Shown: in pieces, positions 5,296 to 33,172 of the stretch
Layout: each line of letters starts with the position of its first letter
How positions within the stretch are numbered: the first letter of the stretch is position 1
From: Candidatus Daviesbacteria bacterium RIFCSPHIGHO2_02_FULL_43_12
Lineage (GTDB): Bacteria; Patescibacteriota; Microgenomatia; Daviesbacterales; UBA10151
NCBI GenBank assembly: GCA_001776775.1
Contig: MFDD01000006.1
Coordinates: forward strand, 2,191-53,000
Reading direction: 5' to 3'
Length of the DNA stretch: 50,810 nucleotides
Translations under genes and position numbers: made by a program
The notes under the pieces: model-generated
Seen by the model: the letters and a program-made list of their open reading frames with translations, nothing else
Told to the model about the DNA's origin: nothing
The model's database searches: none

Positions 5296-6228
5296 ATGCT
5301 CAAGCTGCCATTTGCAATTCCCCGTTTGGGAATAACCCAAATAATTATTCTGGTCTTTACAATCCTGACGGCTATTATTCCAATCACGGTTTTCTTGCTG
5401 TCTCAAAGTTATCGCTCCAGCAGTCATGCCTCTGAGCAAATAGATCAAAGTACCGGCCCCAAGACCACATCCCATGAAGTTCCCAAGGATTCACCTATTA
5501 AAGACCTCTTAGATAACTCCGCTTCAAATCCCCAGGCTTCTCCCGGTACCGAATCCGGGTCTGCTGATGAAGGTTTAACTGGACTAACTGCTCAGATAGT
5601 CGGACCGACCCTGGATTTTATTATCCAGCTCGAAGGACGACCTGCCAGCAGCCAAGCCGCAAAAATCTTTTTAGGAATAGCTACCGGCTCAGCTCAGCTT
5701 AAACCCAATTATTTATTGTCCTTTGCCATAGACGTACCGGCCAGCGGCAGCTACCAAGGGCTTTCTATCCAAGGACTAACTGTTGGCAGTGAGTATACCG
5801 CCTACCTCAAAGGTCCTCAGCAGATTGCTACCTCTTCGGCCTTTACTGTTAGTCCGAATAAAGCCAATCTAAACCCAACTGGAAACCCTCTCTTGATGCT
5901 GACTGGGGACTTAAACGACGATAATCGTATCGACTCCTCAGACCAGACTATCGCCGATAAAGCCACTGGTTCGAATAAAACATCGGGCAACTGGAATCCG
6001 ATCGTGGACTTTAATCTTGATGGAGTGGTCAATAACTTTGACCTCAATTATGTACGTAAAAACCAGGGTCTAACCGGAGCCTCGGGAGCCTGGTATTCTA
6101 GTCCTCCCATTGCCTCAAAGTCAGCATCCCTCGATACCTCACAAGCTATTGGTTCGCCTCTGTTGGAGTCTCCGTATAAACCCCAGGGGGTCTCTGATGG
6201 GTATTGGATGTGGATGCCGAGCTTCTAA
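5296..6228 (+). CDS. Membrane-anchored dockerin type I (EF-hand pair) domain protein
   Basis: N-terminal TM; GDLNDDNRIDSSD and DFNLDGVVNNFDL calcium loops. Confidence 0.8.
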   Translation: MLKLPFAIPRLGITQIIILVFTILTAIIPITVFLLSQSYRSSSHASEQIDQSTGPKTTSHEVPKDSPIKDLLDNSASNPQASPGTESGSADEGLTGLTAQIVGPTLDFIIQLEGRPASSQAAKIFLGIATGSAQLKPNYLLSFAIDVPASGSYQGLSIQGLTVGSEYTAYLKGPQQIATSSAFTVSPNKANLNPTGNPLLMLTGDLNDDNRIDSSDQTIADKATGSNKTSGNWNPIVDFNLDGVVNNFDLNYVRKNQGLTGASGAWYSSPPIASKSASLDTSQAIGSPLLESPYKPQGVSDGYWMWMPSF

Positions 6229-6333: not shown

Positions 6334-6377
6334 CTTGACACTAATCTAGGCTATAGGATACAATTCAAAATAGAAAT

Positions 6378-6782
6378 ATGCGATCAGAACTTTCAAGACG
6401 TGTTGAGACAGTTCGTAAAGCAGCTGCAAGAGCAGGGATACTTGCTCTGGCTGTCCTTCCTTTGGCCTTACTTCCAACTGGTGCTGCTGCTCAGGAAGCT
6501 GTTACGCCAGCTAAGAGCTGCGTTAAGGATGCACTAGTACGTATCGAATCTTTGGGTGATGGATGGCACAATGTGCATTCCCGGGGAGATTGTTCTGAAT
6601 ACTATGGCGGAGTCTGGAGAACTAACCGTGCTGGCGGTGAGGTAGTTGCGATCAGAACCGGAAGATTACCAGATGGTACAGTCTGCCGATATAATGTACA
6701 TCAGGCAGGCGAAATGTATGCTGGCGGACTCTGGGGAGATCCTAAATGTAATGGTAAGGGTGTTAATGCCCTTCAGCGATAA
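6378..6782 (+). CDS. Small secreted protein with four Cys
   Basis: Signal peptide (basic N-region, hydrophobic core, AAA-Q); TTGACA-N18-TACAAT promoter upstream. Confidence 0.7.
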   Translation: MRSELSRRVETVRKAAARAGILALAVLPLALLPTGAAAQEAVTPAKSCVKDALVRIESLGDGWHNVHSRGDCSEYYGGVWRTNRAGGEVVAIRTGRLPDGTVCRYNVHQAGEMYAGGLWGDPKCNGKGVNALQR

Positions 6783-9836: not shown

Positions 9837-10049
9837 ATGACAACTACCAAAGTTTCACTCGATAATCTCCCTGACCTACTGACCGTTAAAGAAGTCGCTG
9901 AGGTCCTCAGAGTGTCTCCTCTGACTATCAAAAGATGGGGTAAAAGGGGCAAACTTCCCGCTATTCGGATCAACTCGAGGGGAGACAGACGCTACAAAAA
10001 GGAAGCCGTTTTATGGCTCCTGGGAATTACTCAAAAGACTTCAGTTTAA
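9837..10049 (+). CDS. Stand-alone MerR/excisionase-type HTH protein (BldC-like)
   Basis: LLTVKEVAEVLRVSPLTIKRWGKRGKL...RGDRRY. Confidence 0.88.
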   Translation: MTTTKVSLDNLPDLLTVKEVAEVLRVSPLTIKRWGKRGKLPAIRINSRGDRRYKKEAVLWLLGITQKTSV

Positions 10050-10920: not shown

Positions 10921-11172
10921 ATGTTAGATAAAAATGATTTAAACCAGATTAAAGGACTTCTGGAGCAACAAACCGAGAACTTTGACCAAAAGTTAGAGAA
11001 ACAATCTGCCTCAATAGACAAGCAATTTAAGTCAATGAAGCAGGAGATTCTAAGAGCCATAAGAAAGAGCGAGAATGCGATTATCGCCTATTTCGATGAT
11101 GCTTATTTTGAGTTGAGAAAAAGGGTAGAAAGAATCGAAGAGTATTTAAAATTGCCTCCTCTAACTGGTTAG
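10921..11172 (+). CDS. Small coiled-coil hypothetical protein
   Basis: Heptad pattern, LRKRVERIEE; TGcTATATT 6 nt before the ATG. Confidence 0.7.
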   Translation: MLDKNDLNQIKGLLEQQTENFDQKLEKQSASIDKQFKSMKQEILRAIRKSENAIIAYFDDAYFELRKRVERIEEYLKLPPLTG

Positions 11173-11871
11173 TACCGACAAAACAAACTTCAGCAAACTT
11201 AGCTGCCGTTTGATCCTCCAGGGCTGAACCATTAATCTAAACAACCACTCTAAACCTATCTTCCTCATCCACAGAGGAGCCCGGGGCACGATTCCAGCAA
11301 TATAATCAAATGCTCCACCCACCCCCATAAAAACTTTAGCCTGAACGCTCTGCAGATGCCGAACAATCCACTTTTCCTGCTTAATATGCCCCAAAGCCAC
11401 AAACAGGATATCTGTCTGGGGAAGCTTACTTAAATCTTGAGTCGTTACCCCGGAATATAATACCTCTCCTCCATTCTCGGAAAAACTTATCTTTAAACCT
11501 GGGAAGCGGGCTTGTAACACTTCAGCGCACTTCTTAGCGACCCTGTCTTGCCCTCCCAAAAACCCAACCAACCAGCCGCTTTGGGCTGCCTGGCGACAGA
11601 GCTGTTCCATAAAGTCCACTCCTGGAACAATATTCTGTACACCTCCCAACCTTAAACCAACCCCATCGGGAATACTCAAGTCAGCTTTATTTAAAATCTC
11701 CCTAAATTCCGGGTCTTTTTGAGCAGACATCACGAACTCGGGGTTGGGAGTGACAACGTATCGCTTGTCGCTTGTCGCTTGTCGCTTGTCGGCTAGCCAG
11801 GAGGAGACAAGCTCTAAAGCCTCCGGCATAGACAGATCGTCAATTTTTACTCCCAGAACTGTTTTTATCAT
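11161..11871 (-). CDS. WecB/TagA/CpsF family glycosyltransferase
   Basis: VVTPNPE, PDGVG, KQEKWI, GVGGAFD, RAP, GLEWLFRL. Confidence 0.93.
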   Translation of the reverse strand: MIKTVLGVKIDDLSMPEALELVSSWLADKRQATSDKRYVVTPNPEFVMSAQKDPEFREILNKADLSIPDGVGLRLGGVQNIVPGVDFMEQLCRQAAQSGWLVGFLGGQDRVAKKCAEVLQARFPGLKISFSENGGEVLYSGVTTQDLSKLPQTDILFVALGHIKQEKWIVRHLQSVQAKVFMGVGGAFDYIAGIVPRAPLWMRKIGLEWLFRLMVQPWRIKRQLSLLKFVLSVLTS

Positions 11872-11886
11872 GTAGTTACTTAATAC

Positions 11887-13056
11887 TTAATACTTAATAC
11901 TTTCTAATACATTAAGTGTTTCCCTGGCTGCTTTTTCCCAACTAAACTTTTTTAGCTGCTCATGACCCTCTTTTATTAACTTCACTCTGAATTCTACATT
12001 CTGCATTCTCATCATACCCTCCAGAATACTCTCTAAGCTATATGGATCAACTAAAATAGCCGCGTTTCCGGCAACTTCTGGCATTGAAGAGATATTCGAA
12101 GTTAACACCGGGCAGTTACTCCCAAAGGCCTCCAGAATTGGCAGTCCAAACCCTTCAAAAAGAGACGGAAATGCCAAGGCTAAGGCATTTTCTAAAAGGA
12201 TTTTTTTCTCTTCGTCAGTAATAAATCCTGTAAATAAAACTCTATCAGAAATCCCCATGGCTTGAGGCTGATGGTAGATCTTAGCTGACTGCCAACCTTT
12301 GTTACCAGCAAGAACAAGTTTTAAAGAGTCGTCAGTCTCCAGACTCCAGTTTTCAGACTTTTTTGCTTTTTCTCTGATAGCTGATAGCTGATGACTGAAA
12401 GCTTCGATTAATCTCTCCAAATTCTTACGGGGTTGGATGGTACCTATAAATAAGAAATATTTTTGTCTTTCAAGTCCAAATTTTTGCATAACTCCCTCCT
12501 CCTTGTCACTTGTCTCTTGGTACTTGTCTCTAGTCGGTCCACCTTCATAGATTACCGTCACTTTTTTTGGGTCGATCCCAACTCTATCTACGAGATCCTG
12601 CTTTGTGGCCTGGGACACAGCGATCAAATGAGTTGCCGATTTAAGCTGCAGCTTAGTAATCGCTTTGAGGTAGAGGGCTTGTTTAAGTTGATGCAAACTT
12701 GGCAAGTACTCCGCTCCCAGATCGTGGATTGTCATCACAGTCTTTAACCCTGGTTTACGAAATAGAGGCAGGGTGTGGGAAGGGACAAACAGTAGATCCA
12801 GATTGTCAGTAAAGGTGTGTATCGCCAAGCCAACCTGAGTCCATAACCGAGGAAAATTAATTAATTTAAACTTAAAATTCTTTGGCCAATCTGATCTGTG
12901 AACTGTGAGCTGTGAACTGCGAACCGGCCTTAGATAGACGATATAAGTATTCTTTTTGTCAATCTCTGCTAAATGTTTTAGTAACTGATATGAATATTCC
13001 TCTGTCCCTGTCCGCCTTTCGATAAAAGCTCTTGACCCATCAATACCAATAACCAT
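11887..13056 (-). CDS. Glycosyltransferase family 4
   Basis: TIHDL, GTIQPRKN, PSLFEGFGLPILEA, FSWEKAA. Confidence 0.93.
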   Translation of the reverse strand: MVIGIDGSRAFIERRTGTEEYSYQLLKHLAEIDKKNTYIVYLRPVRSSQLTVHRSDWPKNFKFKLINFPRLWTQVGLAIHTFTDNLDLLFVPSHTLPLFRKPGLKTVMTIHDLGAEYLPSLHQLKQALYLKAITKLQLKSATHLIAVSQATKQDLVDRVGIDPKKVTVIYEGGPTRDKYQETSDKEEGVMQKFGLERQKYFLFIGTIQPRKNLERLIEAFSHQLSAIREKAKKSENWSLETDDSLKLVLAGNKGWQSAKIYHQPQAMGISDRVLFTGFITDEEKKILLENALALAFPSLFEGFGLPILEAFGSNCPVLTSNISSMPEVAGNAAILVDPYSLESILEGMMRMQNVEFRVKLIKEGHEQLKKFSWEKAARETLNVLESIKY

Positions 13057-13444
13057 AGCTATATGTTACTAGTTCCCAGTGACTAGTGACAAGTTTGGCT
13101 ATTTTCGTAAAAAATTCCTTTTCCATTTTTAGCTTGTATTTTTAAGGGTTAAATGATCATTTTCCAGATCACTTTTTTGAGTAAAAAAGATAACCTAAAT
13201 TGACAAATTATCACCAAATTTTGACCCTTCAAAAACTTCCTAGATTTTGAGCTTGTAAACTGAGAAATTGCCTCTTGACGGATCTGCAGACTTTTGTCAT
13301 GATAAATTTAAGGAAGAAATTCCTAGGAATTAGGTTCACAAGTTGGGGGTTTTATCTATTTAAATCGAATTTATCCCACCCTAAACTTCTAACTAAATCC
13401 TAGGCTTTCAACTGCCCGCTATCTGGAAAAGATAGTAAAAATAC

Positions 13445-16400
13445 ATGAATAAATTGCTTGGCAAGAGCATCTCGCCCAAGCAGACGGACCATTCGGCCGC
13501 ATCAAACGCGGCACGATCAAACGTGCCTGCCGAGTTTGACTCGGTGGCTTCATCTGTGGTGGCCAAACCAACCCGGGGTTTAATTTCTATTGGTAAAGCA
13601 GCAAAGTATCTGGGGGTATCGATTGACACTCTGCGTAACTGGGAGGAGCAGAAAAAGTTAGTCTCCATTAGGACGGCCGGGGGCAGTAGGAGATATAGGT
13701 TAACAGAATTAAAAAAGTTTGCGATTGCTACTCCTAAACTTGCCAGAAAAATAGAGCAGCACAGTCACCCTAACTTTGAAGATCTCAAGCCAATCTCAAA
13801 AGCTAAAATCCCTGCATCTATATATACTAATGAGCAGCAGGGCGAACATCACTTGGGTTACGCCCCCTCTCCGATCGCTCGGGCGATTAAACAGTTTAAC
13901 CCCAGCTCCATCTTGCCATTGCCACCACCCTTTGTTATCAAGGATAAACCCCGACACCAAGTTGCGAATCATCTTAAGAAAGCTTTACAAATGGGACTAG
14001 GGGGAATTGTTGCAGCCGGATTTATTGTCACCGCCATTATAGTTGGCAGTTACTTCATTAATCCCAGACAAACAAACCAACATTTTGCCCACTCCTCTGC
14101 CCTGTCTCCTTTTAATTCCCTTGCTAAGGGATACCTGTCTATGATACTGCCCCAGAAAGCTAGGGAGTTAGGTTTAAAGAAGTCGTCAGTCGTCAGCCCT
14201 CAGTCGTCAGATAATCTGATAGCTGACAGCGAAGCGAGTCTGAAAGCTGAAAACTCTTCCAACGTCCTGGCAATCATTAACCAGAGACCCGGAACCTTAA
14301 ACATTAACGCCAATACTGCCATCAACGGAACCTTATTGATCGAAGGTGGTGTTCGGGTTACCGGAACAGACGTCAGTGGCTTGCTCCAAAGCATTACCGG
14401 CGGAGATAATGTTACGATTGTCGGTGCCGACTCCCCCAACCCTACTATCTCTGTAACCCTTCCCTCTAATTTAGTTAATTCTTTTGCTACATCTAGTACC
14501 GGAACAAAAGTATCCGGGGATATTATCTTGGGTTCCGGATTATCCCTGGCTACTGCAACTAAAACTATCTCTGTCTCCACCCCAACCCTCTCTTCGGTCA
14601 GAAGTGCCGGTGGATGTTCTGGCTGTATTACTGATGATGATGTCGATAGCGCTCTGACTATCTCATCTTCCGGATCAGTTGCGGTCGGAGCATTATCCTC
14701 GGCTGTAACTATTGCAAAGGGAGGAACGGCACTGACCTCATATACAACTGGCGATATTCTTTATGCTAACTCCTCAGGGACACTCTCTAAATTGGCCATT
14801 GGAACATCTGGCCAATCTTTGGTCGTCACCTCTGGTCTACCTGCCTGGTCATCATCCGGTGCCGGAGTAACCTCCCTAAACAGCTTAACCGGAGAATTAA
14901 CGATAGCGGGGACTTCTAATCAAATCTCGGTGGCAGCATCCTCCACCACGGTGACACTATCTCTACCTTCGACTGTTACTACCACCAACTTAAATGCCTC
15001 GTCTGCCTTGCAGTTAAACGGCACCAATATTAATACCGGTGGAACTCTTTCTAATGTTGCCTACCTGGACACAGCCCAGACCTTTAGCGCAGCGCAGACC
15101 AACTCTACTGCCGGGGCTGCCTCTACCCCAGCCCAGAAACTAACAGGAGCCTGGTATACCGGAGGATCCGGCACAACCACCAAACCTCAACTACTGATTG
15201 AACCAAGCGGAACCACCACCAATGCCTGGTCAACCTCCGGCACTGGTATTGGAGTCAATGCCGCAGCTACCTTTGCCGGAAATTTAATTGATCTGCAGCA
15301 AGCCGCTAACTCCATTTTTTCAATTACCTCAGTCAGTAGTGCTGTTAATGGCTTTAACTTCCTGGCTGGGGCAACCGGATCAGGTGTAGCTATTAGTGCC
15401 GACGGTGGGGGGTCTGATACCAACATCCCTTTAAGTATTGATGCTAAGGGCTCTGGCTTAGTCAAGATTGCGGCTACCTCTACCGGCAATGTTGAGCTAG
15501 CCGGAGGGTCTGCAGCAACCGGATGTACGATCGCCAACTCCACCGGAGCCCTGACTTGTGCCGGGGATATTACCGGTGGCTCAACCGGAACAAGCGGCTA
15601 CTGGACAAGATCAGGAACAACCCTTTCTCCGGCTACAGCCGGGGATGCGATCACTACCTCAGGTAATCTTTCAACCTCAGGATCCGGCACATTATCGATT
15701 GCCGGAACAGCCACTTTTTCATCGACCATTAACACTAATACCTTTAGCTCAACTGCCTTAACCTTTGCCTCAGGCGCAACTACTGCGGTTATCTCGCCGG
15801 CTACAGCCGGAACACATATTGAAGTAGACTCCGGCGGTGGGACAGGGAATATTTTGCTGGGTGGAGGTTCTGGTTCGACCGGGTGTACTGTCTCTGATTC
15901 AACTGGAAACCTAACTTGTGCCGGATCTATTACCGGAGGATCAGAATCTAATCAAGGGTACTGGTCAAGATCGGGAACTACCCTTTCGCCTGTCACCACC
16001 GGGGATGCGATCACTACCTCAGGGAATATTTCTACATCAGGCTCTGGTGCAGTTACCTCAGCCGGGCTCTTAACCGGACAACTTGGTTTAACTATAACCG
16101 GTGCAACCACCAGTATTAATGCCTCCTCTAACTTTGCCACTAATATTAACACCGGCACCTCAACCGGAACTATCTCACTTGGTAACTCAAGCGCCGGAGC
16201 GATTGCCATATCCGGTTCTTCAACTTTCGGAGTAACGACTACTACATCAGCCCAAACTTTCACCAGTGCGGTTGTTTCCGGAACTACTACCTCTTCAGCT
16301 TTTGTCTTTACTGATTCAAGCTTAACTACTGGAACTGGATTGTATCTTGTCTCCTCATCTCTGACTTCTGGAAAACTGGCTCATATTGCTCCGACCTTTG

Positions 16401-19400
16401 CCGGAGCTGGAGTAACAGGCTACGGAGCCTATCTTGAAGGAGCTGATTCAACAACTTCCGCCAACACCGACTACCAACTTTACTCTACTCTAGCTTTATC
16501 AGGCAATGCTGCCAAAACTGGAGTGGGTATATATTCAACAGTAACCAGCTCTTCTACCACCGGAGATACATTAATAGGATTAGACTTGGCTACAAGTGCA
16601 ACAGGTGCCCTAGCTGCCACTCAAACTAGGACAATCTATGGTTTAAGGTCTCAGCCTGCATCAACCGGAGCTTCAAATAACTCTGATGATACATTAAATC
16701 TGTATGGCTCATACTTGGCTCCAACCTCTACCCTAGCCTTGGCTGGTACGACTAATGTTTATGGACAATACATCTCTAATATTGCGACCCATAACGCTGA
16801 TGCCGGAACTGTTAACTCCTATGGACTATATATTGCCAACGGCACCTCCTCTACCAACGGAACTAATACCAAATACGGACTTTATATTGCCACCCCGACC
16901 GGAGCCGATACTAATTATGCGCTCTATATCGCGGGAGGAAATGCCACTTTAGCTGACGGAGCCCTGCTTGACCTCTCGGCGATTAACCTCTCCTCAACTA
17001 CTGAAGGGTTATTGCTGCCTCAAAACGCCACCGCCTGTTCCAGCGCTACCGCTGAGGGACAAATCTGCTGGGACACCTCAACTGATACGCTATATATCGG
17101 TAAGAGTGGTTCAACCGCGGCTGTTGGCCAGGGTGATATCACTGCAGTTGGATCAATGACCTCGGGCGCCGCTTTTGCCGACTCCGGAGCTGATGATGAC
17201 TGGCTGGGACTTGGCTCCGGAGCAGGAAGAATCGAATTTGACGACCAAACTACCGATGAAGTGAATATCCTTTCAGCCAATGTCGGAATTGGTACTCAAA
17301 CTCCTGGAGGTTCCCTGGATGTCTCAGCTGCTAAGTCGCTAACTCCCTCTTTAACTGGAGCCTATCTTTCTTTTTCGGCCTCAACCCTAACTGACTCCGG
17401 TACCGCTGCCTCCGGGACACTGGCTAATGCAGCTTTTAACTCGATTGCCGCCCCGACCCTGGCTGCTACCAACACCTCAGTAGTGACAGACCATGCCTAT
17501 ACTCTATACCTGGCCGGACCCCCAACTGCCGGTACCAATGAAACAATTAATAATAGCTACGCCTTAGGAGTTAATGGTAAAACCCAGCTGGCTAATGCAG
17601 TTGAACTGTCCGGTTCAACCGATGCCACAACTACTGTTGGCACCCGGGTCGAGGGGGCCTGGTCAGTTACTAATCTAGCCGCCGGCACTAATACCTATAA
17701 TTACCGCCGGGCCATTACTGTCACTAATAACGACTCCTCCACTGCCCTGCCAACCAATTATGAGCTCACTATTACCTTAACCACTGGAGCCAGCTCACAA
17801 TCATCTGATGTTTGTGCAACCACCAAAAACGACTCCTCTGACCTGATTGTGGCGAAATTAACTGGCCCGACTGAGATTGCCAGAAATATTACCCGTACCT
17901 CGTGCGCTGCCGGGTCTCAACAGATTGTGGTTAAATTCTTAAATCAAGCTTCAATTGCCGCCTCTGGCACAGCTACCTATTATCTATATTATGGCAACTC
18001 CGGCAGCTCAAACACTGCTCCCACAACCTACTCAACCTCAGCAGTTGTCCTGGATAGTGCAGATAACGTTGGTTCGTGGACCAGTAATGATTCAACTAAC
18101 TTTGCTATTTCCCAGGAGACGACCATCAAACAAGAAGGGACAGGGTCAATCAAGGCAGTTGCTGTTCAAAACTGCTCAACTTGCGGAGATATCGGGGTAT
18201 TCGCAACCACCAACCAGGGACAATTACCGACAACGCGGGCGTATTTTAATACTACGGAAAGTGTTGTAATTGGTGGAACAGGTTATCTCTACTTTATAGG
18301 AGGTGACTGGGCACCAGTTCTTTCAACTGTGTATAAATCTACCATCACTACAGCTGGAGATCTCGGCTCATTTGTAACAACCTCCCAGGCACAGTTACCC
18401 CTTGGCCTATCCTACATGGCCTCAAATATCGTTGATGTTGGTGGTACAAATTATATCTATATTATCGGTGGCTACAACCCAACAACCTATTCAAGCGTAT
18501 ATAAGGCTCAAATTGGCTCAACAGGAAATATTGGAGCCTTTGCTACTACCTCACAAGGACAAATGCTTGAACTTATTTGGCAAAACGCATCTACCGTTGC
18601 AAGCATTAGCGGGACATCATATATCTATGTACTAGGAGATGCTGACGGAAATACTTCAGCCGTCTATAAAGGAATGATTAATCCAGCCAATGGTGATGTC
18701 GGGTCTTTTGCTACCACCTCACAAGGACAACTAAAGGTTGCCACTGTATTTGGAGACGCTACAACCGTCACTATTGGAGGAACTAATTATGTGTATATAG
18801 TAGGAGGAAATACTATTTCCACTGTTTATAAAGCTCAAATCGATACTTCAGCAAACATAGGTTCATTTAATTCTACCTCCCAGGGACAGCTGCCGGCAGT
18901 GATATACAATCCTGCAGTTAATCCTTTTACCATTGGCGGCACGAATTATCTATATGTCTCTGGTGGAGAAGTCTCAACTGTTTATAGAGCAACTCTTGAT
19001 GGTTCGGGTAATGTCGGTTCTTTTGTGACAACTGGGCAAGCACAATTTCCCGCAGCCATTAGAAGCCTGTCTAACATAGTCACTCTGGGTACTTCAAGTT
19101 ACTTCTACGGACTGGGGAATGGCAGTGCATCTGTTGTATATAAAGGAAAAATTACCACTACCTATGATCCATCCGGAGATGTCGGGGCATTTTCTACCAC
19201 ATCTCAAGGACAACTACTCGCTACTCGGCTTCAACTAGGCGGAGCATTGGTGGCTGTCGGCGGGACGAATTATATCTATGCAATCGGAGGGGATTCTGCT
19301 TCAACTGTTTATAAAGCCCAGATTGGATCATCAGGCAATGTCGGCTCATTTGATACTACCTCCCAGGGACAGCTACCGGCCAATATCGAACAAATTGAGA

Positions 19401-22400
19401 ATTCTATTACCACTGCAACTGTCGGAGGAACGAATTATGTCTATCTGGCAGGAGGAAGCGGCGGAGGCTCGGCTTTATATCGAACACAGGTTGATGCCTC
19501 GGGTAATTTGGGCTCTTTTGTAACCACCTCTCAAGGTCAATTAAAAGCAGCTCGGTACGGAACCGGCGCTATCACAGTCAATCAGGCCGGAACCTATTAT
19601 CTCTATAATATCGCCGGTTGGGATGGCGGCGCAGCTACTTCAACGGTATATAAATCTCAAATCGACACCTCCGGCAATGTCGGCTCATTTGATACTACCT
19701 CCCAGGGACAGCTACTGGCTACCCGATACGGAGTAATGGTTGGTCAGGCAACGATTGGTGGAACAAGCTATCTATATGCACTTGGCGGATGTTCTAACGG
19801 GTCTTGTGGAGCAGATGCTACCAGCACAGTTTATAAAGCCCAGATTGGATCATCAGGCAATGTCGGCTCATTTGATACTACCTCCCAGGGACAGCTACCG
19901 GCCAAACGTTGGGAGGGAGCGGTTGTCACACTCTCAATCATGGGCAACTTCCTCTATGTCATCGGAGGAGATGCCGGTACTGGCGCCACCCCCACTTCAA
20001 CAGTTTATAAAGCAGCTATTAACTCAACAGGAGACATTGGCTCTTTTGTGACTACAGGCCAGGCACAGTTACCGGCAAATAATGGGGCAAATCCGGCGGT
20101 GGTAACTAATACGGTTGGCTTTTCCTACCTCTATACCTTGGGTGGGACAACCACTTCAACAGTTTATAAAGCATCTCTGGGGGGTTACGGTGCCCAGCTT
20201 ACTACCTCTGCCAAAAACCTGACTGATTTAGGCGGTCTGCAAATGCAAGTGTATTCCTCCAGGACCGGAACTTATTTAACTTATGATGTTTCCGAAGACG
20301 GGGTGACCTGGACACCCACCTCCAACTCAATTACTATCTCAAGCGCCAACACCTGGGAAACAAAACAGCTGGATATCTCAGGGACTGCTAATGGAGCTAA
20401 AGACGGAATTACCAGAGTAAGAGTTCGGGCATCTGATACGACCTCTGGATTTACGATGTACTTTGACGATATGTCCGGCATTAGCACTGCTTTTAGCGGC
20501 TCATCCCCTTCGGTGGCCCAAGCTGCCAGAATAATCGGTGCAGCTAATTTAATGATTAATGCTCAGGGCACGGGGCTTGTCAGGGTAAATTATGACGCTA
20601 ACTCCAACACCATTGCCGGCTCCGGGGGGCTGACGGTCTATAACGGCGCGACTACTGCCTATTTACAAGTTGATGCTAATGGTAATGTCGTTGTTGGCCA
20701 AGGGGCGGCTCTGGCAACCACCGCCACCAACGGATTCTTATACCTACCCAGCTCTGCCGGCTTACCGACAGGAGTACCAACTTCATACACCGGCTCTTTG
20801 GCGATGGAATATGACTCAACTAATAATAAACTCTGTGTCTATAACGCAGCTTGGAAATGTTCGGCAGCCCTATCTGACTTTGCCGAGTGGGCACCGGCTC
20901 GCGGGGCTGAAATTGGAGATATCGTGGTAACCACCGACGAGGTTAATCCAATTGAGGATTCCGCTTCTCCTTTTATGCTGGGTAAATCCAGCATTGCTTA
21001 TGACCAAAAAATTGTCGGAGTTATCTCTAAATATGCTGAGGATAGTAACGACGCCCATGGCTATAAAAGATCTGATGATTACCACGCGGTGGCCCTGGCC
21101 GGACGTGTGCCAGTTAAAATTGCTTCAAATTCAGCTGCTATTAAAAGAGGCGACTACTTAACTTCTTCCTCTACTCCAGGACAGGCGATGAAGGCGACTA
21201 AACCTGGCCAAATAGTTGGTAAAGCACTCGAAGATTACGATCCCTTAATTAGCAATAAAACTGCAAATCCCGGTATGGTACTCGCTTTTATTCAGCCTGG
21301 CTTTGCTGATCCCCAAAATGCTTTAGCTAATCTATCAATTGAACCTGATGGAACCTTACTGGTGCCAAAATTAAAGGTTGGAGAATTAGGCCTCGATACT
21401 AAACTGTTTGCCCTGGAAGATAGAATTAATCAGCTCAGCCTGACGTCAACAAACACAGAAGATAACTTATTACTAAATAAGCTAGCAGCCTCAAGCGAGA
21501 CTATAGATCCAATTAACGTAGCTTCAAAGCTTCTAACCCTCGATCAAATTCAAGCCACGCAAACTGCGACTTTAGCAAAGCTTGAATCAAGAATCCTCAG
21601 TAATGAATCAAACATCAGTGATAAAGTAGCCTCATTGTCCGCTCAAATCGCTTCCCTCTCAGCAAAACTGGCGAATAAAGAATCCGACAGCGAATCTCTC
21701 TCAAAAGTTTTAGCTGCACAAATTGTCCAACTATCCGAGAAAATAAATTCCTTGCAGCTAAACAGCTCATCTTCAGCCATTGCCGAGGCAAGTAGCTCCA
21801 GCGTCTTCAAGAAATTCTTAGCTGATGATTTCCAACTCACCTCTCCTGATACTTTACTGGCAACAGGAAGTTCACAACTTGCCAGCTTAGCTGTGGCCTC
21901 GGAAGCTACCTTTTCTGGCCGACTAATCGCCTATGACACGATTATCTCCAACTCTTTTAAGTCTTTGGGCGAGACGTTCTTGGGTCAGACAACTATCGCG
22001 GAAGAAGTCAATGTTGACGGCACCCTTTCGGTAACAGGAAACGCCATTAATAGCATTGGGACACTTTATTTGCAAAGCGCTCCCCTTTCTACCAAGCTGG
22101 ATATCTTTGGAGGGAAGCTAGTCATTGATATAGACGGTAACTTGACTACATCAGGAGATATCAAAGCCACCAACCTTGAGATCACCGGAGCGTTGATCAC
22201 CCGGGCCGATGCCGGAGAAGATATTACCATTGGAGATGTAGTATATATTACTGAAGCAGGCACTATTAAAAGGGCCAATGCATCAGATGACTCGTCCTCC
22301 TTGGTGGTCGGTATCGCCGCAGAATCGGCAGAGCAGAATAAACCAGTTAGAGTGGCTATTAGTGGTCGGGTTGGTGGCTTTAAGAATCTGCAAGTCGGTA

Positions 22401-22870
22401 AACCGTATTTCTTGGGTAATAACGGAAAGCTGCTGACAGTGCCAACCAAAGCAGATACCAAAGTCATTCAGGTAGCAATTGCTTTCAATGAAAATAGCCT
22501 GCTTGTCCAGATCCATCCTGATGCCAGCATTAATTCCAAAGTCTTAGGTATTTCAGCCAGCGCTGAGGTCGATCCAAGCTTTAACCTTAAATCCGAGTCC
22601 CCATCTGGTAGTCTAAAAGAGCTGATTAATAATATCGACCAGCAAGAAGCCAGTGGGAGCGCCTCTTCTAGCAAAACTTTGACTGTTAACAACAACACCT
22701 TAGGGTTTTTGAGGGTTAGAAGTAACCCAACAGTTACTGCCGAAGAACTAACCAAGCTAAATATTGGTGATAAATTCCCCGTCCTAGAGCAGCAAAACGG
22801 TTGGTTCAAGATTGAATATACTCCTGCTAATTTCGGCTGGGTGCTAGGATCCTATGTCAGTGTCAAATGA
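13445..22870 (+). CDS. Giant membrane-anchored surface/adhesin-like protein with N-terminal MerR-type HTH
   Basis: ISIGKAAKYLGVSIDTLRNWE...RTAGGSRRY; TM at about aa 185-205; Thr/Ser/Gly-rich repeats; 12 kelch-like repeats; phage-tail-like DFAEW...GRVPVK module; coiled coil; C-terminal SH3b (LRVRSNP...GWFKI...GWV). Confidence 0.85.
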   Translation: MNKLLGKSISPKQTDHSAASNAARSNVPAEFDSVASSVVAKPTRGLISIGKAAKYLGVSIDTLRNWEEQKKLVSIRTAGGSRRYRLTELKKFAIATPKLARKIEQHSHPNFEDLKPISKAKIPASIYTNEQQGEHHLGYAPSPIARAIKQFNPSSILPLPPPFVIKDKPRHQVANHLKKALQMGLGGIVAAGFIVTAIIVGSYFINPRQTNQHFAHSSALSPFNSLAKGYLSMILPQKARELGLKKSSVVSPQSSDNLIADSEASLKAENSSNVLAIINQRPGTLNINANTAINGTLLIEGGVRVTGTDVSGLLQSITGGDNVTIVGADSPNPTISVTLPSNLVNSFATSSTGTKVSGDIILGSGLSLATATKTISVSTPTLSSVRSAGGCSGCITDDDVDSALTISSSGSVAVGALSSAVTIAKGGTALTSYTTGDILYANSSGTLSKLAIGTSGQSLVVTSGLPAWSSSGAGVTSLNSLTGELTIAGTSNQISVAASSTTVTLSLPSTVTTTNLNASSALQLNGTNINTGGTLSNVAYLDTAQTFSAAQTNSTAGAASTPAQKLTGAWYTGGSGTTTKPQLLIEPSGTTTNAWSTSGTGIGVNAAATFAGNLIDLQQAANSIFSITSVSSAVNGFNFLAGATGSGVAISADGGGSDTNIPLSIDAKGSGLVKIAATSTGNVELAGGSAATGCTIANSTGALTCAGDITGGSTGTSGYWTRSGTTLSPATAGDAITTSGNLSTSGSGTLSIAGTATFSSTINTNTFSSTALTFASGATTAVISPATAGTHIEVDSGGGTGNILLGGGSGSTGCTVSDSTGNLTCAGSITGGSESNQGYWSRSGTTLSPVTTGDAITTSGNISTSGSGAVTSAGLLTGQLGLTITGATTSINASSNFATNINTGTSTGTISLGNSSAGAIAISGSSTFGVTTTTSAQTFTSAVVSGTTTSSAFVFTDSSLTTGTGLYLVSSSLTSGKLAHIAPTFAGAGVTGYGAYLEGADSTTSANTDYQLYSTLALSGNAAKTGVGIYSTVTSSSTTGDTLIGLDLATSATGALAATQTRTIYGLRSQPASTGASNNSDDTLNLYGSYLAPTSTLALAGTTNVYGQYISNIATHNADAGTVNSYGLYIANGTSSTNGTNTKYGLYIATPTGADTNYALYIAGGNATLADGALLDLSAINLSSTTEGLLLPQNATACSSATAEGQICWDTSTDTLYIGKSGSTAAVGQGDITAVGSMTSGAAFADSGADDDWLGLGSGAGRIEFDDQTTDEVNILSANVGIGTQTPGGSLDVSAAKSLTPSLTGAYLSFSASTLTDSGTAASGTLANAAFNSIAAPTLAATNTSVVTDHAYTLYLAGPPTAGTNETINNSYALGVNGKTQLANAVELSGSTDATTTVGTRVEGAWSVTNLAAGTNTYNYRRAITVTNNDSSTALPTNYELTITLTTGASSQSSDVCATTKNDSSDLIVAKLTGPTEIARNITRTSCAAGSQQIVVKFLNQASIAASGTATYYLYYGNSGSSNTAPTTYSTSAVVLDSADNVGSWTSNDSTNFAISQETTIKQEGTGSIKAVAVQNCSTCGDIGVFATTNQGQLPTTRAYFNTTESVVIGGTGYLYFIGGDWAPVLSTVYKSTITTAGDLGSFVTTSQAQLPLGLSYMASNIVDVGGTNYIYIIGGYNPTTYSSVYKAQIGSTGNIGAFATTSQGQMLELIWQNASTVASISGTSYIYVLGDADGNTSAVYKGMINPANGDVGSFATTSQGQLKVATVFGDATTVTIGGTNYVYIVGGNTISTVYKAQIDTSANIGSFNSTSQGQLPAVIYNPAVNPFTIGGTNYLYVSGGEVSTVYRATLDGSGNVGSFVTTGQAQFPAAIRSLSNIVTLGTSSYFYGLGNGSASVVYKGKITTTYDPSGDVGAFSTTSQGQLLATRLQLGGALVAVGGTNYIYAIGGDSASTVYKAQIGSSGNVGSFDTTSQGQLPANIEQIENSITTATVGGTNYVYLAGGSGGGSALYRTQVDASGNLGSFVTTSQGQLKAARYGTGAITVNQAGTYYLYNIAGWDGGAATSTVYKSQIDTSGNVGSFDTTSQGQLLATRYGVMVGQATIGGTSYLYALGGCSNGSCGADATSTVYKAQIGSSGNVGSFDTTSQGQLPAKRWEGAVVTLSIMGNFLYVIGGDAGTGATPTSTVYKAAINSTGDIGSFVTTGQAQLPANNGANPAVVTNTVGFSYLYTLGGTTTSTVYKASLGGYGAQLTTSAKNLTDLGGLQMQVYSSRTGTYLTYDVSEDGVTWTPTSNSITISSANTWETKQLDISGTANGAKDGITRVRVRASDTTSGFTMYFDDMSGISTAFSGSSPSVAQAARIIGAANLMINAQGTGLVRVNYDANSNTIAGSGGLTVYNGATTAYLQVDANGNVVVGQGAALATTATNGFLYLPSSAGLPTGVPTSYTGSLAMEYDSTNNKLCVYNAAWKCSAALSDFAEWAPARGAEIGDIVVTTDEVNPIEDSASPFMLGKSSIAYDQKIVGVISKYAEDSNDAHGYKRSDDYHAVALAGRVPVKIASNSAAIKRGDYLTSSSTPGQAMKATKPGQIVGKALEDYDPLISNKTANPGMVLAFIQPGFADPQNALANLSIEPDGTLLVPKLKVGELGLDTKLFALEDRINQLSLTSTNTEDNLLLNKLAASSETIDPINVASKLLTLDQIQATQTATLAKLESRILSNESNISDKVASLSAQIASLSAKLANKESDSESLSKVLAAQIVQLSEKINSLQLNSSSSAIAEASSSSVFKKFLADDFQLTSPDTLLATGSSQLASLAVASEATFSGRLIAYDTIISNSFKSLGETFLGQTTIAEEVNVDGTLSVTGNAINSIGTLYLQSAPLSTKLDIFGGKLVIDIDGNLTTSGDIKATNLEITGALITRADAGEDITIGDVVYITEAGTIKRANASDDSSSLVVGIAAESAEQNKPVRVAISGRVGGFKNLQVGKPYFLGNNGKLLTVPTKADTKVIQVAIAFNENSLLVQIHPDASINSKVLGISASAEVDPSFNLKSESPSGSLKELINNIDQQEASGSASSSKTLTVNNNTLGFLRVRSNPTVTAEELTKLNIGDKFPVLEQQNGWFKIEYTPANFGWVLGSYVSVK
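19307..19905 (+). repeat. Identical DNA repeats among kelch units
   Basis: 77-bp identity at 19307-19383 and 19829-19905; its 43-bp core also at 19673-19715. Confidence 0.9.
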
Positions 22871-22948: not shown

Positions 22949-25585
22949 TTACAGGAATTCCAGACTTGAAACAACCTTATCAAACTCGCTCATTAAGGGA
23001 GAGGTCGAGGGTTTAACCTTTAGATGAATGATTCGCTGATCCTTAGTTAAAATAAATTCCATGGCTGAAGCCAAGTCTGCTTCCTTCCAAACTGTCACTT
23101 CAGCATCAAATCCAGGGATCTGAGCCAAGCCTTTATTCTGAATTACCCCGCCAAACTTTAAACTGCTTGATTTTACCCATTCATCTTTTGATAAACCAAC
23201 AGGCAGGAATCCGGCAAAAAAACTAATCTTAAAACTTTGATCAGTCGAGGAGAGCGAGATGAAACTACCTTCTCTTTTGATAGTCCAATCCTGAGGATAT
23301 TTAAACTTAAATCCCTGGTTTGTCACAGTATAACTTTTCCAGTCTGTTACCGCTTGTTTAAGCTGAGACTGAATTATTCTACCCAGGCCATTTCGACCCT
23401 CGATTTTATAATCCTCGGTAGTAGCATTATCAAAAATAAATTGAAATTGTTGTTTAGCTTCATCCAGCTTGCCCAGTGAATAAAGGGTATTAGCTAAATT
23501 TAGCCTAATTGATAATTCCTTAGGTAAATAGGAAACCGCCTCATCAAAGTACTTTAGTGAACCAGCTAAATCTCCTCTTAGGGCAGTAAAAACAGCAATC
23601 CGATTTAATATTTCCGGGGAGAAAGGCGCAAACTCATAAGCTTTTTGCAGATAATCAAGAGATTTTTGTTTTACTTGCTGTTGTTTGCCAGTATCTACAT
23701 CTTTAGCAAATGGATCTTTCTGATCACTGATACTCCAAAAATAGTCAGATAAGTCAACAAAACTGGTGGCATATTCAGTTAAAATAGTATTGTAGGCACC
23801 GTTATAGTTCCGCTCTATATAAAAGGGTTTTTTATCTAAAAAATCCGGATCTCTAAATTTATACTGAAAATTCTTCTCGTCTGGCTGGAGTATATCTTTC
23901 GCTCCCAAGATTCGGTAGGCCAGTCCTGACTCGACTGCTTTTAGTCTCTCTTTGTCCAGAACTAATTTGCCAGAATCAGTTCCAGCCAAAACCGACTCTC
24001 TAAAAACCATTGGAGTCACATAGACCGGATAACCTTTATTAATCAGTTTCTCAATATACCAGTTCATTACTTCACGGTACTCCTCAAAACGATCTTTTTT
24101 TATCATTGTTTCCAGCTCAATAGGCATTAAATCCGGATTTTGCACTCTTAAATTATCCCGATACCAAGGCAAGATATACCACATATTAGACACAATCGGA
24201 AAAACATCCGATCGCCTTTTCACTGATTCATGTTCATATAAAGATAGTGAGTTAAAAAAATCTCCAGTCCCTATCAAAACGCTATTTTCTGGTAAATTCT
24301 GATACAAATTATCCGCGTAATCCAGGGAAACAAAGGTTCCAGAGCGATCCAGTTTTGGAAACCAATAGATCAAAGGGATCAGGGCCACTACTAAAGCTCC
24401 AATCAAAAAGGTAGATTTTAGTTTTGGTGTGATTCCTAAAAGAACTTTTAAGGCTAACCCCATTCCCGCCCCGATAAAAATAGTAAAGATTATATAGCTG
24501 GCGATAAACCAGGCCTCCTGGTTACCAGATAAGTAGATAATTCCAAAGGCAAGATTAGTTAAAGGGATAATAGCTAAACTTAAAAATAGTTTTTTATTTT
24601 TTTGGTAAATATAAATTGCCCCTAGAACAAGCACAGGTAGCAGTAGCGGAGTAAACTGAACAAACATTAGATAGATATACCTACCAAAAGACTCAGAAAA
24701 AACTGCCGAAGATCCGGTAAAGCCATTGATCGAATTTGTCCGAGGATCATGAATATCCAGACCCTCTCCTCTTAGGTGGCCTACGAAACGGGCGACTGTT
24801 TGCGGATCTCCCCAGTTTAAAAAAGGATGTGCACTGGCTCGGATTGGTAAATAACTGTAGATGGCGAAGGTTAAAATTACCGTTAGAAAAGCGGCTAATA
24901 CAAGTTTTTTCAAACCAATAAACTTCCAAAAAAATACCGTTGACAAAACCAAAGCCGGGACCACTTGAATAATTGTTGGGTTCGCCCCAGTAGCTATCCC
25001 TAAAACCACGGCAACTAACAAGATTCTGTTGAATAACCCCCTCTTGGCCGCTTTCGCGGTTATAACTAAAGTTATGATTACCATCATTAAAAAGTTAGTG
25101 AAGATATAGGACTCGCTATTTAGAGTTTGGGACCAAAATTCGTAGGAGAAGGCTAGGGTAAGCGAGGCAGCAGCAGCAATCAGATTAATCACCCCAGGGC
25201 TTAAAGTGGAGGTTTTAAGTTTTTTAAAAAGGCTAAAAGCTTTTGAGTCGGTTTTGGCTGAATCGATAAACTGAAAATCGCTAATAAAGAGCTTTCTAAT
25301 CAAAAAATAAACTAGGGTTAGGGTACCAAGTGAGGAAACGATTGAAAAAAGTTGGATTCTAAAGAGATCATTACCAAACGGTAGCCAGGTAAACAGATGA
25401 CCGATTAGCATATACAAGGGAAAGCCGGGCGGATTGGGAATACCCAAACTGGCTGCCCCGGCGACCATTGTTCCGGCATCAATGTAGAGGATGGATGTGG
25501 AGAGGGTTTTAAAATAGACGGTAAGCGTAACAACCCAAAGTGTAAAAAGAGGAAGATGTGGCAGTAAAAACCGCAAACGTTTCAT
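22949..25585 (-). CDS. DUF2723/TMEM260-like GT-C glycosyltransferase with TPR and PsbP-like C-terminal domain
   Basis: DAG...LGIPNPPGFPLY, FWSQ...ESY, YLPIRAS, NWGDP; TPR helices; FKYPQDW. Confidence 0.8.
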   Translation of the reverse strand: MKRLRFLLPHLPLFTLWVVTLTVYFKTLSTSILYIDAGTMVAGAASLGIPNPPGFPLYMLIGHLFTWLPFGNDLFRIQLFSIVSSLGTLTLVYFLIRKLFISDFQFIDSAKTDSKAFSLFKKLKTSTLSPGVINLIAAAASLTLAFSYEFWSQTLNSESYIFTNFLMMVIITLVITAKAAKRGLFNRILLVAVVLGIATGANPTIIQVVPALVLSTVFFWKFIGLKKLVLAAFLTVILTFAIYSYLPIRASAHPFLNWGDPQTVARFVGHLRGEGLDIHDPRTNSINGFTGSSAVFSESFGRYIYLMFVQFTPLLLPVLVLGAIYIYQKNKKLFLSLAIIPLTNLAFGIIYLSGNQEAWFIASYIIFTIFIGAGMGLALKVLLGITPKLKSTFLIGALVVALIPLIYWFPKLDRSGTFVSLDYADNLYQNLPENSVLIGTGDFFNSLSLYEHESVKRRSDVFPIVSNMWYILPWYRDNLRVQNPDLMPIELETMIKKDRFEEYREVMNWYIEKLINKGYPVYVTPMVFRESVLAGTDSGKLVLDKERLKAVESGLAYRILGAKDILQPDEKNFQYKFRDPDFLDKKPFYIERNYNGAYNTILTEYATSFVDLSDYFWSISDQKDPFAKDVDTGKQQQVKQKSLDYLQKAYEFAPFSPEILNRIAVFTALRGDLAGSLKYFDEAVSYLPKELSIRLNLANTLYSLGKLDEAKQQFQFIFDNATTEDYKIEGRNGLGRIIQSQLKQAVTDWKSYTVTNQGFKFKYPQDWTIKREGSFISLSSTDQSFKISFFAGFLPVGLSKDEWVKSSSLKFGGVIQNKGLAQIPGFDAEVTVWKEADLASAMEFILTKDQRIIHLKVKPSTSPLMSEFDKVVSSLEFL

Positions 25586-25607
25586 CAGCTAAAAGATTAT
25601 ACCGAGT

Positions 25608-26504: not shown

Positions 26505-26531
26505 TTCTTCGCTATTATAACTTGATAAGAG

Positions 26532-27257
26532 ATGATTAATAAATCAAAGTTAACATCGGATCAAAAACAGTTAAGAGTTAGAATTTTAGAGCTTAGCTTT
26601 AAGCTCAAACTCTCTCACCTTGGATCGTGCCTAAGCGCAGTCGATTTAATTAACGGAGTCTACGCAGTTAAAAAGCGCAACGAAAAATTTGTCCTTTCCA
26701 ATGGACATGCCGGCATGGCCCTATACGCAGTTTTAGAAAAATATGGCTATATTAAAGATGCCAAACTGATCAACGAGCTGATGATTCACCCTGATAGAAA
26801 CCCAAAAATCGGTATTCATGTCTCCACCGGCAGCCTCGGCCATGGCCTACCAATTGCCTTAGGGATGGCTCTGGCGGATAGAAAAAAGGCTGTCTATTGC
26901 ATGATCTCTGACGGAGAATGCACTGAGGGGAGCATCTGGGAGGCGTTTAGAATTGCTCATGAGCAAAAATTAGCTAATTTAAAGGTTGTTTTAAATGCTA
27001 ACGGCTGGGGTGCTTATAGCACGATCAACCTAACTACTCTCAAAAAAAGGATCAAGGCCTTTGGCTTTGCAGTAAGTGACATCAACGGCCATCGTCAGAT
27101 CGAGATAGTCCAAGCCTTAAAGCAGAAAAGCCGCTTTCCCAGTTTAATTTTTGCCAGAACAACTGTTGAACAGCTCCCTTTTTTAAAAGGTCAAGACGCC
27201 CATTATTTTGTAATGAACCCGAATGATTATCAATTAGCTAGGCAATTACTATCATGA
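26532..27257 (+). CDS. Transketolase-like N-terminal (ThDP-binding) subunit
   Basis: SHLGS, LSNGHA, STGSLGHGL, SDGECTEG...WEA. Confidence 0.9.
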   Translation: MINKSKLTSDQKQLRVRILELSFKLKLSHLGSCLSAVDLINGVYAVKKRNEKFVLSNGHAGMALYAVLEKYGYIKDAKLINELMIHPDRNPKIGIHVSTGSLGHGLPIALGMALADRKKAVYCMISDGECTEGSIWEAFRIAHEQKLANLKVVLNANGWGAYSTINLTTLKKRIKAFGFAVSDINGHRQIEIVQALKQKSRFPSLIFARTTVEQLPFLKGQDAHYFVMNPNDYQLARQLLS

Positions 27258-28720: not shown

Positions 28721-28782
28721 ATCCAGAATATAGCACAAGCTAGTTCGTAGTTCATAGTAGATAGTTCGTGGGTAGTATTAGT

Positions 28783-33136: not shown

Positions 33137-33172
33137 TACATTCTAAGCAAACCCACTAATCTTTGCATACTC

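Follow-up and report, generated by a model that had tools for sequence, protein, structure and literature searches.

A conserved fusion of a BldC-like helix-turn-helix domain to a giant predicted surface protein in Candidatus Daviesbacteria, with a candidate operator in the promoter region of its gene

To our knowledge, bacteria belonging to the candidate phyla radiation (CPR) have few regulators that can be recognised as such, and the control of their huge surface proteins has yet to be worked out. RodZ, which binds MreB, has an XRE-type helix-turn-helix (HTH) followed by a linker, a single transmembrane (TM) segment and an extracytoplasmic domain; RacA of Bacillus subtilis is a soluble protein with DivIVA as its partner and with sites at many places on the chromosome. 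RacA uses a MerR-like winged HTH (wHTH; PDB 5I44) to hold DNA at the cell envelope, and RodZ links MreB to the Rod complex (PMC9804626). The transmembrane transcription regulators ToxR, CadC and TcpP consist of an N-terminal cytoplasmic DNA-binding domain and one TM segment, with the rest of the protein outside. Among 50,302 proteins that combine a predicted DNA-binding domain with at least one TM region, the supplement of PMC10269533 counts MerR 386, MerR_1 350 and HTH_17 151 times, about 1.8%; the word Patescibacteria is absent from those of its files that were searched. Very large, repeat-rich, N-terminally anchored surface proteins have been described in small-celled bacteria of the CPR and Omnitrophota (bioRxiv 10.1101/2023.11.21.568195; PMC8080830). 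Here we analyse 50,810 nt of the genome of Candidatus Daviesbacteria bacterium RIFCSPHIGHO2_02_FULL_43_12 (contig MFDD01000006.1, positions 2,191 to 53,000; hereafter the window), in which a single gene encodes P0001, a protein of 3141 residues with an N-terminal HTH, one TM segment and a giant ectodomain.

By sequence and by fold, the solved structure nearest to the HTH of P0001 is BldC of Streptomyces (PDB 6AMA, 6AMK; PMC5859096). A phmmer search with whole P0001 against all PDB chains returned only 6ama and 6amk, the BldC-DNA complexes. In a Foldseek search with an AlphaFold2 (AF2) model of the N-terminal part, built on a 7-sequence alignment, chains of the same two entries took ranks 1-7 (TM-score on the target 0.71-0.82, 36-40% identity), followed at lower ranks by SoxR-DNA, RacA-DNA (rank 10), GlnR/TnrA-DNA and a mycobacteriophage Xis. 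The BldC-type HTH suggested in a preliminary description of this locus is thus borne out. The likeness stops short of family membership, since P0001 scores 23.5 bits against the NCBIfam BldC model NF033787, which has a cut-off of 77. The excisionase model TIGR01764 was narrowly missed (26.5 bits, cut-off 28.8), and the NCBIfam RacA models gave no match. When whole P0001 was compared with Pfam, MerR (PF00376) matched at aa 48-84 (E 5.1e-10, 39.4 bits, cut-off 28.2), while the matches spanning aa 47-92 scored above threshold for MerR_1 (PF13411; 26.5 bits, cut-off 21.6) and slightly below it for HTH_17 (25.8 bits, cut-off 27); with the first 252 aa alone the scores were 43.3, 30.8 and 30.0 bits for MerR, MerR_1 and HTH_17, respectively.

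In its layout, P0001 recalls several of the systems introduced above, and with a predicted DNA-binding domain and a predicted TM region it falls within the wide definition that PMC10269533 gives of transmembrane transcription regulators. Its HTH resembles BldC as a minimal MerR-type wHTH without coiled coil or effector domain, with the wing SIRT.GG.RRYR in common; unlike BldC, a soluble protein of 68 aa, the domain here is the predicted cytoplasmic end of a 3141-aa membrane protein. The coiled coil and effector domain that follow the HTH in classical MerR proteins were not found in P0001: the MerR_1 match covers only positions 2-45 of the 69 in the profile, and aa 95-169 are disordered in the AF2 model. 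The order of N-terminal DNA-binding domain, single TM segment and outside remainder is that of ToxR, CadC and TcpP, but these have an OmpR-type wHTH and an outside part of a few hundred residues, whereas P0001 combines a BldC-type HTH with a fibre-like ectodomain of 2900 aa, and Pfam gave no match to the ToxR/CadC-type wHTH (Trans_reg_C) at E up to 0.01. With RodZ it has in common the sequence of HTH, linker, single TM segment and extracytoplasmic domain; the RodZ-type HTH_25 and DUF4115 gave no Pfam match. With RacA it has in common a MerR-like wHTH; unlike RacA, it has one candidate site per genome, as described below. Judged by these defining features, P0001 is not ToxR-like, RodZ-like, a classical MerR protein or a member of the BldC family. 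Its size, repeat content and N-terminal anchor recall the giant surface proteins of CPR bacteria and Omnitrophota; a term search of the giant-gene preprint (bioRxiv 10.1101/2023.11.21.568195) for helix-turn-helix, HTH, MerR and DNA-binding had no hits. In the freely accessible literature, including a term look-up in PMC13278184, we found no description of a BldC-like HTH-TM-giant architecture or of the promoter elements reported below, and these cis-elements are new in this analysis.

The features of the locus are collected in the table. All the parts named in the preliminary description (HTH, Pro-rich linker, single TM segment and a huge repeat-rich region) are present by open reading frame (ORF), Pfam, hydropathy and AF2 analysis, and the interval 13445-14060 that it singled out runs exactly from the start codon through the end of the TM segment. 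In the AF2 model the wHTH is confident over aa 45-92 (block pLDDT 86-91) and consists of a strand, two helices, a beta-hairpin wing and a short helix. Residues 1-42 are disordered, as is the linker, which is 16% Pro (12 of 75 residues) and varies in sequence among relatives; a long helix at aa 170-205 and stem helices at aa 207-241 (pLDDT 71-80) follow. The TM segment is the sole hydrophobic segment in the entire protein in a Kyte-Doolittle scan. By our count five Lys or Arg residues lie in aa 167-186, before this segment, and one in aa 206-225, after it; across 97 relatives the mean net charge of the flanking 15 residues is +2.0 before and +0.8 after the segment, the value before being higher in 71 of them. 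In addition, the long side of P0001 holds the SH3_3 domain (E 2.6e-9, 37.6 bits, cut-off 27) and every one of the 16 Cys residues, which come in close pairs. An N-in, type II topology, as proposed earlier, is therefore supported.

Table. Features of the giant gene, its upstream region and a nearby stand-alone HTH gene, in window coordinates
Feature	Position	Strand	Basis and remarks
Stand-alone BldC-like HTH protein	9837..10049	+	70 aa; HTH_17 43 bits
Related half-site TTCCTAGATTT (reverse complement AAATCTAGGAA)	13237..13247	.	
Promoter-like TTGACG - 17 nt - CATGAT, TG extension	13275..13303	+	consensus scan, 9/12 matches; predicted
Perfect 14-bp palindrome AATTCCTAGGAATT, candidate operator	13318..13331	.	
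Related site AAATCCTAGG	13395..13404	.	
Giant ORF, P0001	13445..22870	+	uninterrupted, 3141 aa, bitopic membrane protein
GCAGACGGA, codons 12-15 (KQTD)	13480..13488	+	inside giant ORF
BldC-like MerR-type winged HTH, predicted cytoplasmic	13580..13720	+	aa 46-92; Pfam, AF2, top PDB matches BldC-DNA
Disordered linker	13727..13951	+	aa 95-169; AF2 pLDDT <50; composition
Single transmembrane segment	14003..14059	+	aa 187-205; Kyte-Doolittle 2.22
Conserved extracytoplasmic stem	14060..14314	+	aa 206-290; motifs LSPFNSLA, VLA..LNIN; alignments
Dispersed short repeat copy, in-frame insert (..KKSSVVSPQSSDNLIADSEASLKAEN..)	14176..14262	+	
Ser/Thr/Gly/Ala-rich charge-poor region, paired Cys	14315..17944	+	aa 291-1500; composition, Cys positions
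Kelch-like ~55-aa repeats, at least 10	18212..20194	+	aa ~1590-2250; pattern scan
C-terminal bacterial SH3 domain, SH3_3	22706..22861	+	aa 3088-3139; Pfam

In BldC, the HTH contacts DNA through Lys26, Thr27, Thr29, Arg30 (base-specific), Trp31 and Lys33, and the wing through His46, Arg47 and Arg48; Gly44 lies at the head-to-tail interface, and the site of each protomer is AATTXXXX(C) (PMC5859096). In the alignment of the PDB hit, the six HTH residues map to D61, T62, R64, N65, W66 and E68 of P0001, and His46, Arg47, Arg48 and Gly44 to S81, R82, R83 and G79. To collect relatives, the first 260 aa of P0001 served as query for HMMER; the search was exhaustive and yielded 1532 representative proteins at E <=1e-3 and 109 at <=1e-10. 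We compared 171 HTH copies from 97 membrane-anchored relatives: 166 have W at the Trp31 position, 167 have R at Arg47, 142 have G at Gly44 and 170 have R at Thr29, whereas at the Arg30 position 96 copies have R and 61 have N. This conservation of contact positions indicates that the DNA-facing surface is under constraint, and its predicted base-reading position, the equivalent of Arg30, comes in two states.

The fusion of this HTH to the giant ORF is neither a start-codon nor an assembly artefact. The identical 3141-aa protein is recorded on four contigs, and in Logan contigs from three DNA runs (two of them possibly the window's source, the third from the same study as the possible sources) one unitig spans 13000-14244, covering upstream region, HTH and TM segment with zero differences; among the runs listed for the locus there was no RNA run. 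At 13 related loci in public metagenome-assembled genomes (MAGs) the HTH is in frame with a long ORF, and the distance upstream to the opening of the frame is only between a few and about 40 codons; one of these ORFs is complete (2115 aa), and the other 12 extend past the end of the fetched DNA. With the HTH intact in so many genomes, an untranslated HTH is unlikely.

The module recurs widely, and the HTH-TM-giant architecture is common in one CPR lineage. We counted architectures in the best 150 of the 1532 representatives, a set that includes one fragment of P0001 itself. Of the 150, 98 have one or more HTHs and then, 20-260 aa later, a first hydrophobic segment. There is one HTH copy in 30 of these proteins, two in 66, three in one and seven in one (by sequence pattern; eight by Pfam). 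In the relative P0005 (623 aa), eight tandem MerR HTHs stand ahead of one TM segment. The part beyond the TM segment is shorter than 50 aa in 10 of the 98, 50-299 aa in 30, 300-999 aa in 36, 1000-1999 aa in 8 and 2000 aa or more in 14, so that 22 extend at least 1000 aa past it; the largest relative has 6844 aa. Another 47 of the 150 lack a hydrophobic segment altogether, and 38 of these are no longer than 300 aa. The ectodomains are highly diverse and include FG-GAP, BNR with SH3_3, Kelch, a phage-fibre endosialidase-chaperone domain and an intein. A closer subgroup has the full N-terminal module in common: HTH, NPKL, linker, TM segment, P.QT.QFF, LSPFN.LA and VLA..FLEIN. Matches in public genomes that cover the full module come from records titled Candidatus Daviesbacteria or Microgenomates group and from five MAGs labelled uncultured Gammaproteobacteria. 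At genome level, strong MerR matches (E <=1e-9) occur in 46 of 61 genomes of the window's family (about 59 Mb), and in 23 of the 61 they lie in open frames that are 1000 aa or longer (our tally from the result table). In a sample of 121 genomes of the phylum, the window's genome included, 27 have a strong MerR match; the frame that holds it reaches 500 aa or more in 9 genomes and 1000 aa or more in 5. Six small relatives (P0006, P0007, P0010, P0013, P0016 and P0020; 185-246 aa) consist of just two HTHs and a C-terminal TM segment; the HTH-TM module therefore exists without any ectodomain.

The 388-bp region upstream of the giant gene holds a candidate target for this domain. The perfect 14-bp palindrome AATTCCTAGGAATT lies 15 nt past the -10-like hexamer of a promoter-like sequence and 114 nt ahead of the ATG. 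It is the sole perfect copy both in the window and in the 1.12-Mb genome (100% complete; hereafter G000). Across the family genomes, designated by G-numbers, a perfect copy occurs in four of the 61 (G000, G013, G014 and G049), once in each, and each of the four copies stands 100-290 nt upstream of where an ORF of 1949-3574 aa codes for its HTH. By our arithmetic, about 0.5 perfect palindromes would be expected by chance in the ~59 Mb. The flanks of the four sites scarcely align. None of 11 loci with a one-mismatch palindrome has an HTH nearby, and the frequency of such loci equals that of a reversed-pattern control. A repeat finder run on the upstream region reported only short repeats of doubtful weight, the palindrome not being among them, and an Rfam scan of 12900-13700 gave no match. 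The 8-9-mer GCAGACGGA, which sits 5' of the HTH in many relatives whatever the reading frame, was dropped as a special element: it has one copy in the window and 15 genome-wide, a number near chance, and is kept only as a conserved position.

The type of upstream element follows the type of recognition helix. The HTHs at all four palindrome loci have the helix TLRNW, and a sister subgroup has TLRRW; the two differ at the position that corresponds to Arg30 of BldC, the residue that reads bases there (PMC5859096). In the 400 nt before the HTH, the word TTCCTA occurs 18 times at the 8 TLRNW loci, with at least two copies at 7 of them, as against 6 copies at the 29 TLRRW loci (at least two at 3). 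Conversely, AATCTA occurs 81 times at the TLRRW loci (at least two copies at 25 of 29) and twice at the TLRNW loci (at least two at none of the 8). At 15 of the 29 TLRRW loci the promoter reads TTGACA, two direct copies of AATCTATGYA filling the spacer, a -10-like TACGAT, and then a third copy plus an inverted one. Tandem AATCTATGYAAATCTATG, with at most one mismatch, is found once per genome, at the promoter of the giant gene, in all five genomes tested. Both gene types, each with its own type of motif, coexist in G000, G010 and G013. This is the pattern that co-evolution of recognition helix and operator would be expected to leave.

Two other observations concern the TLRRW genes. At nine loci of this subgroup (L005-L008, L014, L098, L100, L102 and L103, the L-numbers denoting fetched loci) the start codon stands between the arms of an inverted repeat of 8 bp, CAGACGGA ... 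TCCGTCTG, whose 3' arm encodes the conserved N-terminal peptide M(K/Q)(N/K)PS; 6 of the 29 TLRRW loci have it by a strict pattern. It could form a translational hairpin. Only the 5' arm is present in the window, at 13480-13488 within the ORF. The second observation is a further membrane-type HTH gene in G000, about 5 kb past the end of the window (G000:C6:58272-58914), which encodes two tandem TLRRW HTHs and is cut by the contig end; GCATAGATTT precedes its TTGACA and AAATCTATGC stands just after its ATG. The word AATCTAKG beside a -35 box may not be exclusive to HTH genes, because TTGACA followed by AATCTAGG also occurs in the window at 6337-6366, before ORF 6378-6782, and at 32645-32660, inside ORF 31259-33136 on the opposite strand.

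On these results we favour, with a probability of about one half, a reading in which P0001 acts as a one-component regulator tethered to the membrane, binding the palindrome of its own promoter region and autoregulating. According to this reading, a type II single-pass protein would carry a working DNA-binding domain on its cytoplasmic side, attached through a flexible linker some 75 residues long, and the likeliest target of that domain would be the unique palindrome. The giant would then feed back on its own transcription from the membrane. The simplest case would be repression, as the palindrome in the window sits just downstream of the -10-like box, and the result would be a self-limiting supply of a very costly protein; binding would also keep the active locus at the membrane. 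The input from the ectodomain might be surface density, contact with a ligand or host, or proteolytic release. The one-component role put forward in the preliminary description thereby gains an operator-like conserved palindrome and a cis-element type that tracks the helix type, the binding itself being inferred. The head-to-tail mode of BldC, raised at the same time, suits one gene type better than the other: the 10-bp direct repeats and tandem HTHs of the sister subgroup recall BldC multimers, whereas the P0001 gene, with a palindrome instead of a direct repeat as candidate site, suits it less.

Several observations weigh against autoregulation by P0001. Besides the low score against the BldC family model, the equivalents of Lys26, Lys33 and His46 are not kept in P0001 (D61, E68 and S81 in our mapping), nor is the Glu16-Arg22 dimer contact of BldC (K51 and G57). 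The full palindrome is present at just four of the eight TLRNW loci. Its placement also varies: it follows the -10 in the window and in G014 and precedes TTGACA by about 15 nt in G013 and G049, so that repression is only one possible sign of regulation. The association of helix and motif is not a set of independent events, and is not a statistical test, because the TLRNW and TLRRW types are two lineages by descent. Codon 183, immediately ahead of the TM segment, is an ATG from which a form without the HTH could arise. Finally, some other factor could bind the promoter sites.

Among the alternatives, one is a variant of the favoured reading with a defined signal: the ectodomain would sense contact or load by binding a host or surface, and juxtamembrane or intramembrane proteolysis would free the HTH onto the same operator. 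The topology is that of membrane-bound regulators, a long disordered linker precedes the TM segment, and extremely diverse ectodomains are joined to a conserved HTH-TM-stem module, as would be the case for interchangeable sensor parts. However, no cleavage motif or dedicated protease was identified, none having been searched for, and in 10 of the 98 membrane-anchored relatives the outside part is shorter than 50 residues, so that the module can work without a sensor domain. We consider this variant rather unlikely.

It is also unlikely that the HTH serves only as a structural tether, anchoring the locus or the nucleoid to the membrane under a surface fibre in the manner of RacA, without transcription control. 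The RacA-DNA complex does appear among the fold matches, relatives with 2 to 8 tandem HTHs could bind with high avidity, and some have little beyond two HTHs and a TM segment. A nucleoid tether should, however, have many dispersed sites, whereas a genome with the perfect palindrome has a single copy of it, in the promoter region of the gene itself; the repeats of the sister subgroup, filling the spacer between -35 and -10, occupy a regulatory position. The general chromosome tether entertained in the preliminary description is disfavoured on the same ground.

We see only a slim chance that the promoter elements are bound by another factor, the giant's HTH being non-specific or directed at other targets. 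A candidate exists, since every family genome also encodes a small BldC-like protein. In the window it is the stand-alone HTH protein at 9837, which fits the BldC feature of a small protein with a wHTH only, as P0001 does not; its HTH is 37% identical to that of the giant over 41 aa, and it scores 45.8 bits against NF033787 (cut-off 77) and 16.6 bits against RacA (cut-off 165). In a comparison of 10 fetched loci, one of which was missed by the search pattern, this protein (..LLTV[KR]EVAEVLRVSPLTIKRWGKRGKLPAIRINSRGDRRYKKEAVLWLLGITQK..) was nearly invariant in 9 other genera of the family (L120, L122-L129), including genera whose giants carry either type of motif. It is thus a conserved family-wide gene which, invariant while the HTHs and promoter motifs of the giants vary, does not explain the locus-specific elements; the element type instead follows the giant's own recognition helix, even within single genomes. 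In G000, G006, G010, G013 and G016, 4-24 kb separate a gene of this type from a giant HTH gene. For the same near-invariance we dropped the 9837 protein as a specific partner of the giant: the stand-alone HTH pointed out earlier exists and is of the same class, but nothing links it specifically to the giant gene. Its conservation is unusually strong for a small regulator.

That the HTH is instead a protein-binding adaptor, joining the fibre to a cytoplasmic structure as the RodZ HTH does for MreB, appears improbable: MreB is encoded in the window (40178-41194) and RodZ has the same HTH-TM-outside layout, but the HTH of P0001 is of the MerR/BldC type and not XRE-type, RodZ-type domains were not found in Pfam, the basic DNA-contact positions are conserved, and so are specific cis-elements. 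Least probable is an artefact, whether a chimeric assembly at the short repeat within the stem or a true start 3' of the HTH, for although the de Bruijn assembly graph branches at 14222-14256 and an ATG exists at codon 183, the motifs on either side of the repeat, LSPFN.LA before it and VLA..L.IN after it, are adjoining parts of one conserved module in relatives, making the join consistent with the family, the same fusion is found in 23 of the 61 family genomes, and M183 is not conserved among relatives.

The graph branches because a 31-mer of this short dispersed repeat recurs in the genome, with three exact copies and two imperfect ones, which have one and three mismatches. The repeat is about 60-85 nt long; its other copies lie at G000:C11:6825-6928, C14:217978-218034, C14:77199-77258, C6:55476-55541, C12:8275-8342, C3:33481-33560 and C8:24812-24870. 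The five translated copies are in frame in unrelated ORFs (the giant and PGK-, ValRS-, LeuRS- and ATP-synthase-alpha-like proteins), and their peptide always reads ..SSVVS.QSSESL.ADSEASLKA(E/D).. The repeat resembles the in-frame palindromic elements of Rickettsia. Tandem heptanucleotide runs of the GTCGTCA type at G000:C8:27959-28023 and C2:331647-331691 are related to its 5' part.

If the HTH of P0001 reads an operator in its own promoter region, the locus would be a minimal circuit in which one polypeptide couples the cell surface to gene expression, and BldC-type DNA binding would be extended to membrane-anchored and tandem forms. The 47-residue domain and the 14-bp site form a directly testable pair, for which the TLRRW helix and AATCTATGYA provide a built-in specificity control. 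As the module is common, in 98 of the 150 representatives and 23 of the 61 family genomes, the result would annotate many genes labelled only helix-turn-helix. More speculatively, the family might represent a large class, as yet without a description, among CPR bacteria of the Microgenomates type: surface fibres as long as 6,800 residues, each bearing on its cytoplasmic tail a promoter-specific BldC-like module in 1-8 copies, autoregulated at a membrane-tethered locus. Transcription, translation, insertion and counting would then take place at one tethered locus, the state of the ectodomain (density, host contact, cleavage) would set expression, and recognition helix and operator would co-evolve gene by gene. 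We regard this wider proposal as tentative.

The ectodomain, about 2900 aa long, is probably a glycosylated fibre. Its proximal part (aa 291-1500) consists to 55-60% of Ser, Thr, Gly and Ala and has few charges. The repeats that follow have the pattern VYK..G.[IV]GSF.TTSQ.QLP..GGTNY.Y..GG and reach 12-13.7 bits with Kelch_6 in a relaxed Pfam search (cut-off 25.3), in which the only other hits on the ectodomain, likewise below threshold, were Phage_cement_2 and Shufflon_N. Apart from the terminal SH3_3 domain, the ectodomain had no match in Pfam at threshold, in PHROGs or in a PDB sequence search, and aa 1-320 of P0001 had no usable match in a protein atlas. A single-sequence AF2 model of aa 1575-2260 had a mean pLDDT of 38 and was unusable; no fold search was therefore made with it. 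An adhesin role is a reasonable guess, given the adhesin-type domain hints: Kelch-like repeats and SH3_3 here, and FG-GAP, BNR and Peptidase_S74 in relatives.

A glycosylated surface fibre would be consistent with the neighbouring genes, which encode glycosyltransferases and a TMEM260-like protein O-mannosyltransferase. The flanks of the giant gene (11161-13056 on the minus strand and 22949-28738) carry WecG/TagA- and GT4-type glycosyltransferases, the TMEM260-like O-mannosyltransferase with TPR, a methyltransferase and a GT2 enzyme. Beyond the downstream flank, the minus-strand region 29532-38357 holds a row of five large paralogous ORFs, four of them with C-terminal TPR repeats. This neighbourhood may be a surface-glycoprotein island. 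Elsewhere in the window, a 310-aa ORF at 5296-6228 on the plus strand has a dockerin type I match that stays below threshold (21.4 bits, cut-off 22.9).

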